Below are positions 1-29,020 of a stretch of DNA of 64,000 bases, one piece after another. A program made the position numbers and the translations under genes. Position 1 is the first letter of the stretch, and each line of letters starts with the position of its first letter. The notes beneath the pieces were generated by a model. That model searched no databases, was not told the DNA's origin, and saw only the letters and a list, made by a program, of their open reading frames with translations. The DNA comes from an uncultured Clostridia bacterium. GTDB taxonomy: Bacteria; Bacillota; Clostridia; TANB77; CAG-508. The stretch spans positions 1,420 to 65,419 of the forward strand of contig CAKOUU010000008.1 of NCBI GenBank assembly GCA_934120675.1, read 5' to 3'.

Positions 1-587
1 AAACAGATATCTTCACTATCTGGTTTATTTGCAACTTTTAAGTCGTTTTCTCTTGCTATTTCACGTATTTGCTCTTTGTCTGTGAAATCTGCTAATGGAA
101 ATAATACATGTTCTATTAATTCTTTTGGAATATTCCATAATACATAACTTTGGTCTTTTTTACCTGCTTGTGATTTTTTTAGTACCCATCTTCCATATTC
201 TTCGCTATATTCTGTTTTTGCATAATGTCCTGTCGCTATGTAATTACATCCTAGTTCCTTTGCTTTTTCCCACATAATTCCGAATTTCATATATTTGTTA
301 CATTCTATACATGGATTTGGTGTTCTGCAATTTGCGTAACAATCTATAAAATCATTTATTACATAGTCTTTAAATTGTTCTTTGCAATTATATGTAAAAT
401 GTGGAATTCCTATTGTTTTGCAAACATTTTTTGCGTCTATGTATGTGTTTATGTTACAACAACTGCTTCCTGCAAATAGTTCTAGTGTTATTCCTAATGG
501 CTCATATCCTTCTTTTTTTAGTAGTAGGGCTGATACTGAGCTGTCAACTCCTCCACTCATTCCTAATAATACTTTTTTGTTTTCCAT
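1..587 (-). CDS. mnmA: tRNA-specific 2-thiouridylase MnmA, N-terminal ~195 codons (gene continues past the window start)
   Basis: Own reverse-strand translation from ATG at 585-587: MENKKVLLGMSGGVDSSVSALLLKKEGYEP...CIECNKYMKFG...ATGHYAK...KDQSYVLW. It has the PP-loop SGGVDSS and the MnmA Cys context. It is absent from the ORF track because there is no stop inside the window. Confidence 0.9.
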   Translation of the reverse strand, partial: MENKKVLLGMSGGVDSSVSALLLKKEGYEPLGITLELFAGSSCCNINTYIDAKNVCKTIGIPHFTYNCKEQFKDYVINDFIDCYANCRTPNPCIECNKYMKFGIMWEKAKELGCNYIATGHYAKTEYSEEYGRWVLKKSQAGKKDQSYVLWNIPKELIEHVLFPLADFTDKEQIREIARENDLKVANKPDSEDIC

Positions 588-682
588 TTTTACCTCCAGT
601 ACTGTTACTATTAATTTGGAAACTTTTATTTATTTATTTAATTTTTATTGACATTTTTTTTTATAAGTGTTAATATAATAAT

Positions 683-758
683 ATAAAAGATAAGAGCGTA
701 GCCCTTATCTAGTCGTTTGGTGAGATTTGTCTGAGGGACAGATCTCTATTTTTCTTTT
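683..758 (+). ncRNA. Candidate cis-antisense sRNA (putative type I antitoxin), copy 1
   Basis: Plus-strand promoter TTGACA(648-653)-17 nt-TAATAT(671-676). Hairpin at 688-710. A 10-bp stem 722-731/737-746 is followed by TATTTTTCTTTT. One T.G pair makes the stem clean only on the + strand. The RNA would overlap the 3' end of the minus-strand ORF 705-866. Confidence 0.45.
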
Positions 759-866
759 AGCTGAATAATATCTAAATACATATTTGTGCTTTGAACACAT
801 ATGTATCAATAATGCAGTTCCTATAAAGAAAGCCATTATGATTAATAAAAATTCTATTAATTTCAT
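705..866 (-). CDS. 53-aa hydrophobic N-terminus / basic tail peptide, type I toxin-like, copy 1
   Basis: Own translation: MKLIEFLLIIMAFFIGTALLIHMCSKHKYVFRYYSAKRKIEICPSDKSHQTTR. SD AAAGGGG lies upstream. Minus-strand promoter TTGACT(1022-1027)-17-TACAAT(999-1004) gives a ~130-nt structured leader. The ORF is below the 60-aa ORF-track cutoff. It is a paralogue of 1610-1771. Confidence 0.5.
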   Translation of the reverse strand: MKLIEFLLIIMAFFIGTALLIHMCSKHKYVFRYYSAKRKIEICPSDKSHQTTR

Positions 867-1053
867 AGCCGTCAACCCCTTTCTTACGTAATTTACATTT
901 AGCTATATAAGCATAAATGCATAGATTAGCAAGCATATAACATAGGCTTACTAGTCTATGCACTTATGCTTGAAAAGGGCGACTTCCAAACTATCGCAAT
1001 TGTATCATGTCGTTTTTCAAAAGTCAATATTTACTATTAAATTTATTTTGTTT

Positions 1054-1521
1054 TTAATTACAACAATTTATATTTCCAGTTCCTGTGCTATCATTTTTCT
1101 CTAGCATATCTTCAATAGTATGCCAAGCCAAAAGAGCACATTTAACTCTTGCTGGCATATTAGAAACATTTCTAAAAGCTATTGCATCTTCCAATTTTTT
1201 AAGTTCTTCCTCATCAGTTATCTCTCTTTTTATCATTTCTATAAATGTTTTTATAATCTCTTTTGCTTCTTCAACTGTTTTACCTTTTAATGTATCTATC
1301 ATTATTGATGTTGATGCTTGTGATATTGCACATCCATGTCCTGAAAATGCCATATCTTCTATTTTATTTCCATTTAATTTTAATTGTAGTGTTATTTCAT
1401 CTCCGCAATTTGGATTATGCCCTACTTCACAGTAGTCTGCATTTTCTAGTTTCTTTTTGTTGTATGAATTCATACTGTGTTCCATTATTAGTTCATTGTA
1501 AACATCTGTTAACTCGTCCAT
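1054..1521 (-). CDS. sufU: SufU-type Fe-S cluster scaffold / sulfur acceptor
   Basis: 155 aa with NPNCGDEITLQLKL, GHGCAISQAS and PARVKCALLAW, the three conserved Cys contexts of SufU/IscU. It lies downstream of sufS. Confidence 0.85.
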   Translation of the reverse strand: MDELTDVYNELIMEHSMNSYNKKKLENADYCEVGHNPNCGDEITLQLKLNGNKIEDMAFSGHGCAISQASTSIMIDTLKGKTVEEAKEIIKTFIEMIKREITDEEELKKLEDAIAFRNVSNMPARVKCALLAWHTIEDMLEKNDSTGTGNINCCN

Positions 1522-1587
1522 TGAAATTTACCTTTCTTTTTTTATTAATTTATTGACAATTTTATTAATTAGTGTTAATATAATAAT

Positions 1588-1666
1588 ATAAAGAGACAAG
1601 AGCAAGCTCTTATCTCATGTGTGGGTGAGATTTATCCATGGGATAGATCTCTATTTTTCTTTTTTT
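1588..1666 (+). ncRNA. Candidate cis-antisense sRNA (putative type I antitoxin), copy 2
   Basis: TTGACA(1553-1558)-17-TAATAT(1576-1581). Hairpin at 1593-1616. Terminator stem GAGATTTATCC/GGATAGATCTC (1627-1651) is followed by a T-run. It has the same T.G wobble position as copy 1, and compensatory changes keep the stem. Confidence 0.45.
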
Positions 1667-1771
1667 GGAACAATATTTTAATGCATATCTCTTTTTAGAG
1701 CAAATATGTACTAGAAACGATAATCCTAAAAAGAAAGCTATTATTATTAATAAAATTTTTATTAACTCCAT
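1610..1771 (-). CDS. 53-aa hydrophobic/basic peptide, type I toxin-like, copy 2
   Basis: MELIKILLIIIAFFLGLSFLVHICSKKRYALKYCSKKRKIEIYPMDKSHPHMR, the C-terminal part of track ORF 1610..1870. A strong SD GAAGGAGG lies before the ATG at 1771. Promoter TTGACT(1930-1935)-17-TATAAT(1907-1912). Confidence 0.55.
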   Translation of the reverse strand: MELIKILLIIIAFFLGLSFLVHICSKKRYALKYCSKKRKIEIYPMDKSHPHMR

Positions 1772-1947
1772 AGCCGTTAACCTCCTTCTTTCGAGATTTA
1801 CATTTAAGTCATGAAAGACATAAATGCATAGATTAGCAAGCATATAACATAGACTTACTAGTCTATGCACTTATGCCTGAAGAAGGTTAACTTCCCAACC
1901 GAGAAGATTATAATATATATTTACTTAATAGTCAATATTTATTTGAA

Positions 1948-3168
1948 TTATTTTATATAATTTTTAAACATACCATAAGCCTTATCAAGTGCCTTAACCA
2001 ATTTATCTACATCCTCTTTTGTATTGTAGATGTAAAAACTTGCTCTACAAGTAGAATCAATACCTAAGAATCTCATAAGTGGTTGAGCACAATGATTTCC
2101 AGAGCGCACACATACACCTTCTGAATCTAAAATACTTGCAACATCATGTGGATGTACCCCTTTAATGTTGAATGAAATCACGCTTGAATGATTTTCTTCA
2201 TTTGGTGTTGTGTATAATGTTAGATAATCTAGTTTTGATAATTCTTGTCTTGCATATGATATTACTTCATGTTCAATTTCTTGTATTTTGTCATATCCTA
2301 AATTTTCAATATAATCAATAGCAGCACCTAAGCCAATTACGCCTTCAACATTTTGTGTACCAGCCTCAAATTTATTTGGAAGTGGTGCAAATGTTGTATC
2401 TTGTTCATAAACGTATTCTATCATATCTCCACCCATTAAAAATGGAGTCATTTTGTTTAGTATTTCTCTTTTTCCATATAATACGCCTATTCCAAGTGGG
2501 GCAAGCATTTTATGTCCTGAAAATACTAGAAAATCCGCATCTAAATCTTGAACATCAATTTTCATATGTGGTATGCTTTGTGATGCGTCAACTATTACTA
2601 CTGCACCTTTTTTATGCGCATATTTTATGATTTTTTTCACATTATTTATTGTTCCTAAAACATTTGAAACATGTGTAATTCCAACGATTTTTGTTTTGTC
2701 TGTAATTTTACTTTCTATTTCTTCGTCTGTAATTTCATAGTTTTCGTTAATGTACATGTATTTTAATTTGCTTCCTGTTTGCTTTGTCATTTTTTGCCAA
2801 GGAACCAAATTTGAATGATGTTCCATTATTGAAATTACTACCTCATCATCTTTTTTTAGGTTGTCCAAACCATATGAATATGCAATTAAGTTTAAACTTT
2901 CTGTTGCATTTTTTGAGAATATTATTTCTTCTCTGTGTTTTGCATTTATGAATTTTGCTATTTTTGTTCTTGTATTTTCGTATTGTTCAGTTGCTTCTAC
3001 ACTTAATGAATATGCCCCCCTGTGTGGGTTTGCGTTATATTTTTGGTAGAATTCTTCTACTGCTTTTATTACTTGAATTGGTTTTTGTGTTGTTGCTCCA
3101 CTGTCTAGATATGTTATGTTTTTATTTTCTAGTAGTGGAAAGTCTTTTTTTATTTGTTCTGTATTCAT
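1948..3168 (-). CDS. sufS: Cysteine desulfurase, SufS subfamily
   Basis: 406 aa with HHSNLVPWQ, the PLP-Lys context SGHKMLAPLGIGVLYG, and the active-site loop RSGNHCAQPL. Confidence 0.9.
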   Translation of the reverse strand: MNTEQIKKDFPLLENKNITYLDSGATTQKPIQVIKAVEEFYQKYNANPHRGAYSLSVEATEQYENTRTKIAKFINAKHREEIIFSKNATESLNLIAYSYGLDNLKKDDEVVISIMEHHSNLVPWQKMTKQTGSKLKYMYINENYEITDEEIESKITDKTKIVGITHVSNVLGTINNVKKIIKYAHKKGAVVIVDASQSIPHMKIDVQDLDADFLVFSGHKMLAPLGIGVLYGKREILNKMTPFLMGGDMIEYVYEQDTTFAPLPNKFEAGTQNVEGVIGLGAAIDYIENLGYDKIQEIEHEVISYARQELSKLDYLTLYTTPNEENHSSVISFNIKGVHPHDVASILDSEGVCVRSGNHCAQPLMRFLGIDSTCRASFYIYNTKEDVDKLVKALDKAYGMFKNYIK

Positions 3169-3171
3169 AAA

Positions 3172-3372
3172 TTATCTCCCATCATCTTCTATTTCTGATA
3201 TTTGTTGATTTTCGTTACATTCTTGTGTATATACAATTTTCTTTTCTTCTGAAAAAGCTTTTTCTATTTCATCATAATTTGGTTCAATAGGATTTATTTT
3301 AATGTTTTGGTATTTTATCATATTTTTCCATGTTCCCATAAATTCATCCATAAACTCTCTTGAATTCTTCAT
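3172..3372 (-). CDS. Hypothetical small acidic protein inside the suf operon
   Basis: 66-aa ORF packed between sufD (stop 3406) and sufS (start 3168). I recognise no motif. Confidence 0.4.
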   Translation of the reverse strand: MKNSREFMDEFMGTWKNMIKYQNIKINPIEPNYDEIEKAFSEEKKIVYTQECNENQQISEIEDDGR

Positions 3373-3405
3373 TAAATCTTTCTCCTTAAAATTACAATTA
3401 TATTA

Positions 3406-4248
3406 TTAATCTAACCTCTTATCAATTTCTTGTAAAATTTCTTCTCTCAATTCTTCATTTTCAATTTTCTCTAAAATTTGATTAAATCTAGCTCTAACCA
3501 TCAATTTCATAGCCTCTTTAAGTTCAAATCCTCTACTCATAATATAGAACAATTCTTTTTCTCCAATTTTTCCGGCTGAACTTGAATGGTTACCTTCAAC
3601 CTCTTCTTCAGAGCAAAGTAACATTGGTAAAGCAATTGATTTTGCTGTATCTGATAATAACATACAAGCCTCATTTTCATTTCCAGTAGCCTTTTTACAT
3701 CCTTTTTTAAAATCAATTGTTCCTTTAAAATGTTTTTTAGATGTATCCTTTAAAGCTCCTTGAACTTCTATATCAATATTAGATTTTTTACCTCTTAATT
3801 CACCTATATAATTTAAGTCAAAAACTTGATTTTCTTTTCCTAAATAAATTGTGTTTAGTTGATTATCACAATTATCCCCTTGTAAATTAGAATAATAATT
3901 TGTAATGCTGTGCTTTCCACCAAAATCAACAATTGTATAATTAATTTTTGCATTTTCTTCAAAATCATTTTCAATTGCTAAAAAGTTATTTGATTTTGTA
4001 TTCATTAAATTAACCAATACAATGTTTAATTCTGCATTTTTTTCAGCTCTTGCTTTTATTATCCCATTGTGATAATTTTCATTTTCTTGGTTTGAAATGT
4101 ATTTTATTATTATTGTTGATTTTGTGTTTTCATTTGCAATTATTTCTATATTGTCTATTAATACAGAATTTTCATTATCAAAATTAAAATCTATTTCCGC
4201 TTCTATTTTCTCTTCTTTTATATCAGAACATTCACATAATTTTGGCAT
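3406..4248 (-). CDS. sufD: SufD, core and C-terminal part (Fe-S assembly protein)
   Basis: 280 aa. The C-terminus SSSAGKIGEKELFYIMSRGFELKEAMKLMVRARF is typical of the SufB/SufD family. The N-terminal ~90 residues expected for SufD are encoded separately at 4295-4528. Confidence 0.8.
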   Translation of the reverse strand: MPKLCECSDIKEEKIEAEIDFNFDNENSVLIDNIEIIANENTKSTIIIKYISNQENENYHNGIIKARAEKNAELNIVLVNLMNTKSNNFLAIENDFEENAKINYTIVDFGGKHSITNYYSNLQGDNCDNQLNTIYLGKENQVFDLNYIGELRGKKSNIDIEVQGALKDTSKKHFKGTIDFKKGCKKATGNENEACMLLSDTAKSIALPMLLCSEEEVEGNHSSSAGKIGEKELFYIMSRGFELKEAMKLMVRARFNQILEKIENEELREEILQEIDKRLD

Positions 4249-4528: not shown

Positions 4529-4550
4529 TAATTTTTCCTTTCTGAATTTT

Positions 4551-4746
4551 TTCGGGATTTGGGGACGGGTCTTTAATCCCGAAATATTTTTCTTTCTTAT
4601 TCCTCAATTGTTATATATTAATATTTAAAGAAAAAGTCCCAAAGGAAGACCCAAAGTAGCATTTTTTCTGAAAATATTAATATATAACAATTGTAAAAAA
4701 AATTTATAAAAATTTTGGGATTAATGACCCGTCCCCAAATCCCGAA
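4551..4746. repeat. Composite nested palindrome: outer GGGGACGGGTC-loop hairpin pair, inner 22-bp perfect inverted repeat, 45-nt centre
   Basis: The outer unit 4551-4583 TTCGGGATTTGGGGACGGGTCTTTAATCCCGAA matches the reverse complement of 4715-4746. The inner repeat 4605-4626 CAATTGTTATATATTAATATTT matches the reverse complement of 4672-4693 at 22/22. It fills the sufB|sufD spacer. Confidence 0.85.
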
Positions 4747-4749
4747 TTT

Positions 4750-6150
4750 TTATCCTATTGCTCCTTCTAATTCTAAGTTAATAAGATTATTCATTTCAAC
4801 TGCATATTCTACTGGTAATTCCTTTGCTATTGGATGTGCAAAACCTCTTACTATCATAGCCTTTGCGTCTTCCTCTGATAGTCCTCTGCTCATTAAATAG
4901 AATATTGTTTTATCACTTATTTTCCCTATTTTAGCTTCGTGTGAAAATTCAACTTCATCTGTTCTTATGTCATTTGTTGGTATTGTGTCTGAAACTGATA
5001 TCTCGTCTAACATAAGTGATTCACATGATACTGATGATTTTGAATTTTTTGCATTTTCATTTATTCTTACCAAACTTCTATATGTGCATTTTCCACCGTT
5101 TTTTGATATTGATTTTGCATTTACAACACTTGATGTATTTGGTGCATTATGAATTACTTTAAATCCGTTGTCTAGGTTTTGTCCTCCACCCGCAAAAGAT
5201 ATTCCTGTAAATTCTGTTTTTGCACCTTCTCCATTTAGTATGCTCATTGGATATAGCATTGATATTTTTGACCCAAATGAACCTGATACCCAGTCCATTT
5301 TTGCATTTTTTCCTACTATTGCTTTTTTTGTATTTAAGTTAAGCATATTTTTTGACCAGTTTTCTATTGTTGAATATCTTAAATAAGCATTGTCTGCTAC
5401 ATATAGTTCAACACATCCTGCATGTAGATTTACTTTATTGTATTTTGGTGCTGAACATCCTTCTATAAAGTGTAAACTTGCTCCTTCTTCTACAATTATT
5501 AATGTGTGTTCAAATTGTCCAGCCTCTGGTGAATTTAGTCTAAAGTATGATTGCAATGGAACATCTACTTTTACTCCTTTTGGTACATATACAAACGAAC
5601 CGCCTGACCATACTGCTCCATGTAATGCAACAAATTTGTGGTCATATACTGGTACACATTTCATAAAGTGTGATTTTACTAATTCTGGATATTCTCTTAC
5701 TGCTGTTTCCATATCTGTATAAATCACACCTTGTTTTATTAATTCTTCTTTCATACTATGGTAAACAACTTCTGAATCATATTGTGCTCCAACACCTGCA
5801 AGTGATGTCTTTTCCGCTTCTGGTATTCCCAATTTGTCAAATGTATCTTTAATATCTTCTGGAACATCATCCCATGAACTATTTAATTTTGACTTTGGTC
5901 TTACATATGTTGCGATTTCGTCCATATTTAATTCTGATAAATCTGGTCCCCATGTTGGCATTTCTAAGTTGTTATATACCTCTAATGCTTTTAGTCTAAA
6001 CTCTCTCATCCAGTCTGGGTCGTTTTTTTGTTTTGATATTTCTTCTATTATTTCCGGTGTTAAACCTTTTTTTATTTTAAAGTCGTATTCATCTTTGTTT
6101 TTTATATCATAGATATTTCTATTTATTTCTTCTAAATTTGTTTTTGACAT
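4750..6150 (-). CDS. sufB: Fe-S cluster assembly protein SufB
   Basis: 466 aa with HTLIIVEEGASLHFIEGCSAP and GKISDKTIFYLMSRGLSEEDAKAMIVRGF. Confidence 0.92.
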   Translation of the reverse strand: MSKTNLEEINRNIYDIKNKDEYDFKIKKGLTPEIIEEISKQKNDPDWMREFRLKALEVYNNLEMPTWGPDLSELNMDEIATYVRPKSKLNSSWDDVPEDIKDTFDKLGIPEAEKTSLAGVGAQYDSEVVYHSMKEELIKQGVIYTDMETAVREYPELVKSHFMKCVPVYDHKFVALHGAVWSGGSFVYVPKGVKVDVPLQSYFRLNSPEAGQFEHTLIIVEEGASLHFIEGCSAPKYNKVNLHAGCVELYVADNAYLRYSTIENWSKNMLNLNTKKAIVGKNAKMDWVSGSFGSKISMLYPMSILNGEGAKTEFTGISFAGGGQNLDNGFKVIHNAPNTSSVVNAKSISKNGGKCTYRSLVRINENAKNSKSSVSCESLMLDEISVSDTIPTNDIRTDEVEFSHEAKIGKISDKTIFYLMSRGLSEEDAKAMIVRGFAHPIAKELPVEYAVEMNNLINLELEGAIG

Positions 6151-22407: not shown

Positions 22408-22663
22408 TTTTATTTTCCTTTCAAATTTTTAGTTTTTATTAAATTCAATATTATTTATATCATAAATTTAGATTTTTTCATAGCTTTTTATAAAATTAAG
22501 AAGCTATGTTTTCATAGCTCCTCTAATGTTAGTTATTTGGCAGGTGTGCCAAATCCTGCATCTCTTTTGACCACTATGGTGTGTGGATGGCACTATTGTC
22601 CACTTCAAATAACTCTTTATATTGTACTTATATTATATAACTTTTATTCATTTTTGTCTAGGC

Positions 22664-28719: not shown

Positions 28720-28793
<74 letters not shown>

Positions 28794-28837
28794 AACTATG
28801 AAATTGTTATCAGTTTTCCACATATTATAAATAAATG

Positions 28838-28911
<74 letters not shown>

Positions 28912-29020
28912 ATTGTTCCTGACAGTTATAGATTATAAATGATTTTCTTATAACTGTCAAGACTTTTTTGAAAATATTTTAAATTTTTTTATATTTTTTA
29001 TCTTCAGTTTTTATTCTCTT

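Follow-up and report, generated by a model that had tools for sequence, protein, structure and literature searches.

In a 64-kb stretch of DNA from an uncultured Clostridia bacterium (contig CAKOUU010000008.1; the whole stretch is called the window here and its coordinates are used throughout), we analysed a cassette of ~390 bp that occurs twice in the suf-mnmA operon. Copy 2 occupies the sufS/sufU junction (1549-1940) and copy 1 the sufU/mnmA junction (644-1031). These are the only copies in the window and they align end to end with a mean column identity of 86%. Our results indicate that the cassette is probably an autonomous, accessory type I toxin-antitoxin (TA)-like module that represents a previously undescribed sequence family. 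A preliminary description of copy 2 had proposed a type I TA-like layout, and comparison with related loci retrieved for this purpose (numbered L001 etc.) bears it out: convergent units with strand-specific terminators, a conserved open reading frame (ORF) coding for a predicted transmembrane (TM) segment and a basic tail, and a ribosome-binding site (RBS) sequestered by pairing that shows covariation. The predicted elements of copy 2 are the following:

1907-1935, minus strand: toxin promoter TTGACT-17-TATAAT (11/12 matches)
1879-1891, minus strand: anti-Shine-Dalgarno element (anti-SD, GUUAACCUUCUUC) at the 5′ end of the toxin mRNA, paired with 1776-1788 in the minimum free energy fold
1816-1878, minus strand: long hairpin of the 5′ untranslated region (5′UTR), 24 conserved pairs
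1776-1788, minus strand: Shine-Dalgarno sequence (SD, GAAGGAGG, 1781-1788) and spacer, sequestered by the anti-SD
1610-1771 (stop included), minus strand: 53-aa ORF, MELIKILLIIIAFFLGLSFLVHICSKKRYALKYCSKKRKIEIYPMDKSHPHMR
1585-1616, minus strand: toxin-mRNA terminator directly after the ORF stop, stem 1616-1593 followed by UUUAUAUU
1588-1666, plus strand: antisense RNA of ~75-79 nt (both ends predicted), two hairpins and a U-tail
1627-1651, plus strand: stem of the antisense terminator, followed by a T-run to ~1666
1553-1581, plus strand: antisense-RNA promoter TTGACA-17-(TG)TAATAT

Both promoters had been placed at these positions in the preliminary description; they were found there, the convergent plus-strand one with an upstream TG. 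As a class, promoter-like sites were not enriched (11 found vs. 11.0 expected in a scan of 500-2100), and the case for the two promoters therefore rests on conservation. Across ~60-65 copies the toxin promoter was kept as (A)TTGAC-17-(TG)-TATAAT with a spacer sequence free to vary, and it is present in nearly all homologous copies. The antisense promoter TTGACA-17-TAATAT was likewise kept, with varying spacers, in nearly all of ~65 copies, including remnants in which the toxin part is dead.

For terminator-like sites, four were found in the same interval vs. 0.2 expected. The plus-strand-specific terminator recognized earlier at 1627-1666 consists of the stem at 1627-1651 and the T-run. In 53 distinct sequences its nine consensus pairs gave, on their own strand, 428 Watson-Crick pairs, 48 G·U pairs specific to the plus strand and a single mismatched cell; read on the toxin strand, the same stem has 49 mismatches, as the 48 G·U cells would become A·C. 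Compensatory changes occur at four pairs. The compensatory change between copies 1 and 2 (A-U vs. G-C) and the common U·G pair that forms only on the plus strand, both of which had been remarked on before, are real and generalize to other copies. A minus-strand terminator at 1616-1593, an element unlisted in the preliminary description, shows 55 G·U pairs on the toxin strand vs. 3 on the other strand (53 copies), and its toxin-strand form was the more stable one in 52 of 53 sequences. RNAalifold run on the antisense strand predicted the antisense terminator and did not predict the 5′ hairpin of the antisense RNA; this hairpin has A·C mismatches on the antisense strand, which indicates that it is primarily the terminator of the toxin strand. 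The strand-specific pairing is direct comparative evidence, at the level of the aligned sequences, of selection for one terminator per predicted convergent transcript.

The two transcripts would overlap by ~75-80 nt, a stretch that comprises the terminator of the toxin mRNA, the stop codon and the ~18 codons before it; in copy 2 these are codons ~36-53, and the antisense RNA is complementary to the whole stretch. The predicted duplex of antisense RNA and mRNA has an energy of ~-140 kcal/mol for cognate and ~-84 kcal/mol for non-cognate partners; for the copy 1 RNA the values were -144 kcal/mol with its own mRNA vs. -85 kcal/mol with the copy 2 mRNA. An antisense RNA gene with its own promoter and terminator and with complementarity to the toxin mRNA, a defining trait of type I systems, is thus present as far as the sequence goes. 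We consider it very probable that the cassette has this two-RNA architecture, and we infer that both RNAs are transcribed in vivo.

Type I systems typically have mRNAs of 150-400 nt with anti-SD elements and a terminator stem-loop, and in Gram-positive bacteria the antisense RNA often overlaps the ORF from its 3′ side (PMC8594479, PMC6563280). The predicted toxin mRNA of copy 2 (~315 nt, from a start at ~1900 to the terminator) is a short structured transcript of this kind with a sequestered SD; its fold has an energy of -106.9 kcal/mol (z = -11.1). In this fold the anti-SD GUUAACCUUCUUC (1891-1879) pairs with GAAGGAGGUUAAC (1788-1776), i.e., the SD and spacer, and the helix closes the base of the 24-bp hairpin; this 13-bp helix is another element unlisted in the preliminary description. 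The SD GAAGGAGG itself had been correctly assigned to the 53-aa ORF. Pair counts on 46 leader sequences showed 94.5% of the cells paired, compared with 33-47% when partners were slid by 1-3 columns, and 19 pairs had changed on both sides; the observed values were reached by 0 of 500 shuffles. Nine of the 13 pairs in the anti-SD/SD helix have compensatory changes, with compensated variants such as GUUAAC/GUUAAC, GUCGCC/GGGGUUGAC, AUUGGC/GCCGAU and CUAUCUAUCCCUC/GAGGGAGGAUAG. For the long hairpin, RNAalifold and counting showed pairing in 99% of the cells, compensatory changes at 10 pairs and G·U pairs restricted to the toxin strand. RNAalifold missed the anti-SD/SD helix in the 5′UTR alignment because indels put the subfamilies out of register; single-sequence folds and explicit pair counting were used instead. 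The strong local pairing CATAGACT/AGTCTATG, described before in the leader, does exist; it proved to be only the apical tip of the conserved 24-bp hairpin (1816-1878).

Further observations were made on the leader. Every copy conserves, at the corresponding place, an alternative local pairing at the hairpin tip (1836-1856, minus strand), CAUAG(ACU)...(AGU)CUAUG. This pairing draws on the 5′ arm that the long stem also uses, so that the two compete, and it may form as a metastable intermediate during transcription. In the second copy of L036 (3950-3975) and in L054 (3905-3930) the 24-bp hairpin was lost precisely (GGCATAA|ATGT) and independently, with the promoter, SD, ORF and antisense gene all retained; either the hairpin is dispensable or excision of the palindrome is frequent. 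The sufU/mnmA copies of L082 (3098-3215) and L083 share the same ~118-nt insertion, with hairpins of its own, in the toxin 5′UTR between the long hairpin and the SD.

The 53-aa ORF with a hydrophobic helix and a basic tail was found at 1610-1771, as previously reported, and it is conserved and intact in related copies that have not lost its 5′ part. An SD, a start codon (49 ATG, 4 GTG) and an intact frame were present in 53 of 58 near-full-length copies, and four of the remaining five yielded a full-length ORF with a second script. Outside the RNA overlap the pooled pN/pS was 0.49 and the median pairwise dN/dS 0.37; inside it the values were 0.14 and 0.07. Since synonymous change persists inside the overlap (pS 0.43), the C-terminal motif appears constrained as protein, beyond the RNA alone. 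By these substitution patterns the ORF is a gene under purifying selection. AlphaFold2 (AF2) with the family alignment predicted a TM helix at residues 2-26 and a beta-hairpin at 29-44 (mean pLDDT 82.7). The best 19-aa Kyte-Doolittle (KD) window scores 2.87 in copy 2 and 2.67 in copy 1, and the tails have net charges of +8 and +6; both properties are compatible with a basic-tailed peptide that spans the membrane once. Small size (<60 aa), hydrophobicity, a predicted TM segment and a charged C-terminus are those expected of a type I toxin. His22 and Cys24 are invariant, and the motif H-x-C-S-K is conserved at the membrane boundary.

Searches of related genomes with the peptide and the cassette, a check foreseen in the preliminary description, recovered more than 60 related copies with their elements conserved. 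The peptide has 52 homologue clusters in metagenomes, nearly all of 51-56 aa. A scan of one genome per species gave 56 loci, all from uncultured gut Clostridia or metagenome-assembled genomes (MAGs) named 'Clostridium sp.'; in most of them the whole ~390-nt cassette is recognizable from promoter to promoter, and the remainder are 5′-truncated or more divergent. A profile search of 1.84 billion representative proteins returned only 28 clusters at 50% identity, all with LVHICSK..Y.LKY.S.KRK[I/F]EIYP. The family is small and narrowly distributed.

Results of the database searches placed the cassette in no named family. At E <= 10, Pfam and NCBIfam gave no significant family and, as far as these databases contain them, no known type I toxin family such as Hok/Gef, Fst/Ldr, TxpA/BsrG, YonT, Ibs or TisB for either peptide, with matches at chance level only (LHC 0.22, Wzy 0.032, TrpE 0.13), and a PADLOC scan of both peptides found no match. 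Rfam cmscan of 1-4000 (E <= 10) returned four chance matches (three miRNA models and one algC, all E >= 2.3); the antitoxin RNA families of Rfam, of which 13 belong to type I (PMC8594479), were matched neither there nor, at gathering score, in the whole window. Blastn of the cassette against plasmid and phage collections produced short AT-rich chance matches only. As every sequence test of membership in a named family failed, we file the cassette as a new family of a known kind, the type I TA systems.

The cassette is accessory. Among the 56 genome loci anchored on the peptide, 50 lie inside the suf-mnmA cluster, always in the orientation of the operon; the junctions used are sufD|sufS, sufS|sufU (the commonest) and sufU|mnmA, with two copies at some loci. 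This strong preference does not figure in the preliminary description. Six loci are outside the main cluster. L017 adjoins a reduced sufC/sufBD-like set with mnmA, and L051, L052, L053, L055 and L056 carry the cassette elsewhere, complete in L051 and L055; L051 and the suf copy L049 come from the same MAG. A distant, complete cassette coding for a 62-aa peptide was found on a phage-like contig (L057:1015-1460; IMGVR_UViG_3300045988_157821, 38 kb, IMG/VR), where it is flanked by an XRE-type repressor gene and by endolysin, holin-like and tail-fibre-like genes. As a guard against ascertainment bias, a second sample was anchored on SufU and comprised 58 loci with complete sufS|sufU and sufU|mnmA junctions. 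The cassette was at neither junction in 37 of these, at sufS|sufU in 11, at sufU|mnmA in 8 and at both in 2, and loci with 97-99% identical SufU occurred both with and without it. At empty sites the sufS stop, the SD and the sufU ATG lie within 13-25 nt. At occupied sites the cassette sits exactly between stop and SD, and no target duplication was seen. The preliminary description had weighed the possibility of a universal suf leader without coding conservation; this is rejected, given 37 of 58 loci lacking the cassette and an ORF with dN/dS < 1.

Seven decayed copies lack toxin expression signals. In L014 the antisense gene alone remains, L016 has an internal deletion of the hairpin, SD and start codon, and L116 a deletion from the anti-SD through the SD; L038, L047 and L119 are 5′-truncated at sufD|sufS, and L042 is 5′-truncated as well. 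The antisense promoter and RNA are kept in all seven, and the reverse pattern was seen in no copy. Such decay matches the prediction for a toxin and its antitoxin and is suggestive, supportive yet not decisive.

The junctions also hold other material. At sufS|sufU, L111, L117 and L118 carry an unrelated insert of ~460 nt (L118:2030-2510). It has an SD (GGAGG), a very hydrophobic 34-aa ORF (MFISIILTLILLYISIIINITLLSIIFLILSNKK, 2224-2328, plus strand) followed by a hairpin, and, on the other strand, a convergent perfect (12/12) promoter TTGACA-16-TG-TATAAT (2454-2427). This insert looks like a second, unrelated type I TA-like cassette at the same site, with an antisense terminator that is not established; in that case at least two unrelated cassette families use the sufS|sufU junction. 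Varied co-oriented cargo was observed at suf-mnmA junctions of many loci (L001, L002, L004, L015, L019, L020, L022, L026, L027, L032, L037, L046, L066, L088, L094, L099, L112 and L143); examples are a ~223-aa kinase-like, a ~204-aa HAD-like and a ~198-aa membrane protein, and a ~110-146-aa family between sufU and mnmA. It seems that in this clade the operon is a hotspot for insertions. On the simplest reading its junctions permit insertion, and the spread of cassettes occurs by recombination in the conserved genes on either side.

Comparative analysis thus reveals two predicted transcription units, conserved RNA structures, coding constraint, an accessory distribution and antisense-only remnants, and a course of events can be proposed for them. 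A near-consensus sigma-A-type promoter would give the ~315-nt toxin mRNA on the suf-operon strand, and read-through from sufS would add transcript. The 5′ anti-SD would pair with the SD region across the base of the long hairpin and leave the transcript poorly translatable as made. The ORF would code for a 53-aa peptide with an N-terminal TM helix, H-x-C-S-K at the membrane boundary and a basic beta-hairpin tail. From the convergent promoter a ~75-nt RNA with its own terminator would be made, fully complementary to the 3′ part of the toxin mRNA. By analogy with Gram-positive systems that overlap at the 3′ side, the duplex would trigger decay of the mRNA and/or hold it closed, and peptide synthesis would be off. 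Once the labile RNA was lost, the stable structured mRNA could be translated and the membrane peptide would arrest growth. Toxicity of the peptide, which is proposed by analogy with known toxins, we hold with somewhat less confidence than the two-RNA architecture; neutralization and decay through RNase III-type duplex cleavage we infer from the same analogy.

The minus strand carries every gene in the first 6 kb of the window. The transcription order is sufB, sufD, a 66-aa ORF, sufS, cassette copy 2, sufU, cassette copy 1 and the start of mnmA, as listed here together with the predicted elements of copy 1:

4750-6150, minus strand: sufB
3406-4248, minus strand: sufD
3172-3372, minus strand: 66-aa acidic ORF (MKNSREFMDEFMGTWKNMIKYQ...) between sufD and sufS, a junction that varies among relatives
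1948-3168, minus strand: sufS (cysteine desulfurase; Pfam Aminotran_5 on orthologues), upstream neighbour of copy 2
1054-1521, minus strand: sufU (NifU_N scaffold), downstream of copy 2 and upstream of copy 1
999-1027, minus strand: copy 1 toxin promoter TTGACT-17-TACAAT
705-866, minus strand: copy 1 53-aa ORF, MKLIEFLLIIMAFFIGTALLIHMCSKHKYVFRYYSAKRKIEICPSDKSHQTTR, 58% identical to the copy 2 peptide
688-710, minus strand: stem of the copy 1 toxin-mRNA terminator
683-757, plus strand: copy 1 antisense RNA of ~75 nt, terminator stem 722-746
648-676, plus strand: copy 1 antisense-RNA promoter TTGACA-17-(TG)TAATAT
1-587, minus strand: 5′ part of mnmA (tRNA 2-thiouridylase; Pfam tRNA_Me_trans on orthologues), downstream of copy 1

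Elsewhere in the window, GC-rich palindromic repeats of ~45 nt (CGGGATT..GGGGACGGGTC..AATCCCG) occur mostly as inverted pairs (4545-4589, 4708-4752, 30673, 54561/54612 and 63544/63620). One pair flanks ~120 nt between sufB and sufD. The repeats may be REP- (repetitive extragenic palindromic) or MITE-like (miniature inverted-repeat transposable element) elements, or paired terminators. An orphan structured RNA, the skipping-rope motif (Rfam RF02924), scored 68.2 bits at 22532-22613 (minus strand) vs. a gathering score of 36.7. Two tRNA genes, 118 nt apart and 100% identical, lie at 28720-28794 and 28838-28912 (minus strand).

The position of copy 2 in the operon is peculiar. Only 12 nt separate the sufS stop from the -35 box of the toxin promoter and there is no intervening terminator, so the toxin ORF would be part of the suf polycistronic transcript; nor is there a promoter after the cassette, so that expression of sufU must depend on transcripts that pass the toxin terminator, which has a short and interrupted U-tract (UUUAUAUU). 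It is conceivable, though we think it unlikely, that the suf-mnmA junctions serve as a dedicated landing site for type I TA-like cassettes wired into the transcription of the operon. If so, induction of suf under Fe-S or oxidative stress would produce toxin mRNA by read-through, and the antisense RNA would pair with the terminator that precedes sufU. The result could be a stress-coupled growth brake or an antisense-controlled valve on sufU/mnmA expression, i.e., a selfish element co-opted into the control of Fe-S cluster biogenesis.

Several points weigh against an autonomous TA-like module. The toxin-strand terminator stands directly before sufU, where the host must tolerate or exploit read-through. 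The decay asymmetry amounts to ~5 independent events, and the toxin part is an approximately three times larger deletion target. In one subfamily, MELIEHLLMKLVSFGG..., the hydrophobic segment is weaker (KD 1.74) and the tail almost neutral (+1). The strongly conserved KRK[I/F]EIYP and H-x-C-S motifs suggest a specific interaction over generic membrane damage. Plasmids and cultured phages, in the collections searched, yielded no homologue: neither the window peptide, compared by tblastn with 50,697 GenBank phage records, nor the L057 peptide, compared in the same way with plasmids, had a match. The hosts are uncultured and the evidence comes from sequences. Lastly, about 90% of the copies reside in one operon and are always co-oriented with it, a pattern not usual among selfish modules that may reflect a suf-tied function.

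Such a function is spelled out most directly by supposing that the product is a non-toxic, antisense-regulated small membrane protein tied to sulfur/Fe-S trafficking (SufS-SufU-MnmA), whose His-x-Cys-Ser motif and basic beta-hairpin contact a partner or a metal/sulfur species and whose level is tuned by the antisense RNA. The co-oriented majority of 50 among the 56 peptide-anchored loci agrees with this, as do L017 beside its reduced suf-like set and mnmA, the invariant His22 and Cys24, a dN/dS of 0.07-0.14 in the C-terminal motif, and a tail that AF2 models as an ordered beta-hairpin, not as disordered. Yet most close relatives do without the cassette, complete copies reside in unrelated contexts and on a phage-like contig, and the remnants retain the RNA gene and lose the peptide. 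SD sequestration plus a dedicated antisense RNA is, moreover, typical of harmful products (PMC8594479), and the unrelated hydrophobic-peptide/antisense cassette at the same junction argues for a permissive site and not a common function. We therefore regard a trafficking protein as doubtful.

Less probable still, and quite unlikely in our view, is an operon-internal regulatory device in which the strong promoter and leaky terminator set sufU/mnmA expression, the ORF is a leader peptide, and the antisense RNA, paired with the terminator region, governs how the polycistronic transcript is terminated or processed. The missing terminator between sufS and the cassette and the short, interrupted U-tract would suit it; the distance of only ~25-30 nt to the sufU start, with no promoter, means that sufU is expressed through the cassette, and the toxin terminator has its complement in the 5′ half of the antisense RNA. 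At empty sites, however, sufS and sufU are tightly coupled and their junction works with no cassette in it; the cassette is accessory and also found away from suf, and 28 clusters show protein-level conservation of the peptide and its TM helix, something that a leader peptide does not need. A Cys-codon attenuation leader was also considered, on account of two Cys codons next to a cysteine desulfurase gene; it was rejected since the TM helix is conserved as protein and the cassette is accessory.

A non-coding MITE-like mobile repeat with an incidental ORF and hairpins is highly improbable and was rejected: the two ends of the cassette repeat each other in inverted form (ATATTGAC...GTCAATA(A/T)), and alternative intergenic sites and presence/absence polymorphism would fit, but these termini are the -35 boxes of two fully conserved promoters with their -35/-10 geometry kept beyond the terminal hexamers, a locus or genome has no more than 1-2 copies, target-site duplications were not observed, an intact ORF with SD and dN/dS < 1 is found in nearly every copy without a 5′ deletion, and strand-specific G·U pairs in three helices show selection on RNAs from both strands.

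Homology is a poor guide to type I TA systems, and in Clostridia other than C. difficile very few have been described. Here a complete cassette could be defined purely by comparative evidence, through its promoters, strand-specific terminators, SD covariation and conserved peptide, in uncultured, small-genome, low-GC Clostridia of the human and animal gut. The unusual part is an insertion hotspot inside an essential Fe-S biogenesis operon, with presence that varies between near-identical strains; we found no literature precedent for a type I TA system in suf or essential operons. The cassette, if it is a TA-like module as we propose, offers a natural system for asking how modules are acquired and tolerated in essential operons and whether coupling to a stress operon gives them a physiological role. 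In addition, small proteins and small RNAs in gut metagenomes can be annotated with the new sequence and structure models that it provides.

In its general plan the cassette resembles TxpA/RatA, BsrE/G/H, YonT and SprG/SprF, in which the antisense RNA overlaps the ORF on the 3′ side (PMC8594479). With B. subtilis txpA/RatA, bsrG/SR4, bsrE/SR5 and yonT/SR6 it shares convergent genes and a putative toxin of <60 aa with a TM segment and charged C-terminus, and the expected action would be the same, namely duplex-triggered decay with a possible structural effect on the RBS (PMC6563280). It differs from them in that no sequence relationship was detected (Pfam, NCBIfam and Rfam, E <= 10), that it has two separate strand-specific terminators and a 5′ anti-SD closing a 24-bp hairpin, and that it lies inside the suf-mnmA operon and not in prophage-like regions. 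The C. difficile modules CD2517.1-RCd8, CD2907.1-RCd9 and CD0956.2-RCd10 and their prophage homologues also come from a clostridial host, and have convergent overlapping genes with a long complementary region and some phage-borne members (PMC6563280, PMC7699646). Their toxins, like others of Clostridia, are 50-53 aa long, start with a hydrophobic TM segment and end in a tail rich in Lys (PMC6563280, PMC7699646), a profile that the peptide described here matches. To these toxins our peptides have no detectable similarity: the profile search returned its own family only and tblastn against phages nothing. Nor does the cassette lie beside CRISPR arrays, as CRISPR-associated toxins of C. difficile do; its preferred site is a housekeeping operon, with one distant member on a phage-like contig.

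The par locus of Enterococcus faecalis (fst/RNA II) is another Gram-positive, compact cassette of ~400 bp with convergent transcription, and the 5′ region of its toxin mRNA is structured in a way that limits translation, as predicted here. The two par RNAs share a bidirectional terminator, they interact decisively at 5′ repeats that lie beyond their overlap, and no part of the ORF is overlapped by the antisense RNA. This account of par is covered in part by PMC8594479. In our cassette, by contrast, each RNA has a strand-specific terminator of its own, the 3′ end of the ORF falls within the overlap, and the peptide has no Fst-family match. As in hok/sok and aapA1/IsoA1, the primary toxin transcript would be kept translationally inert by an anti-SD (PMC8594479), and the conserved alternative hairpin CAUAG/CUAUG could act as a co-transcriptional intermediate. 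Those systems, however, use long-distance pairing between the 5′ and 3′ ends, activation by 3′ trimming and an antisense RNA that targets the 5′ region, whereas the anti-SD of the cassette is at the 5′ end of the leader and its antisense RNA targets the 3′ end. Finally, zor/orz of E. coli belongs to an unrelated family and has a divergent antitoxin gene without overlap with the toxin mRNA; still, orz is a precedent for antitoxin genes that persist without a functional toxin (PMC11264685), as in the antisense-only remnants described here.

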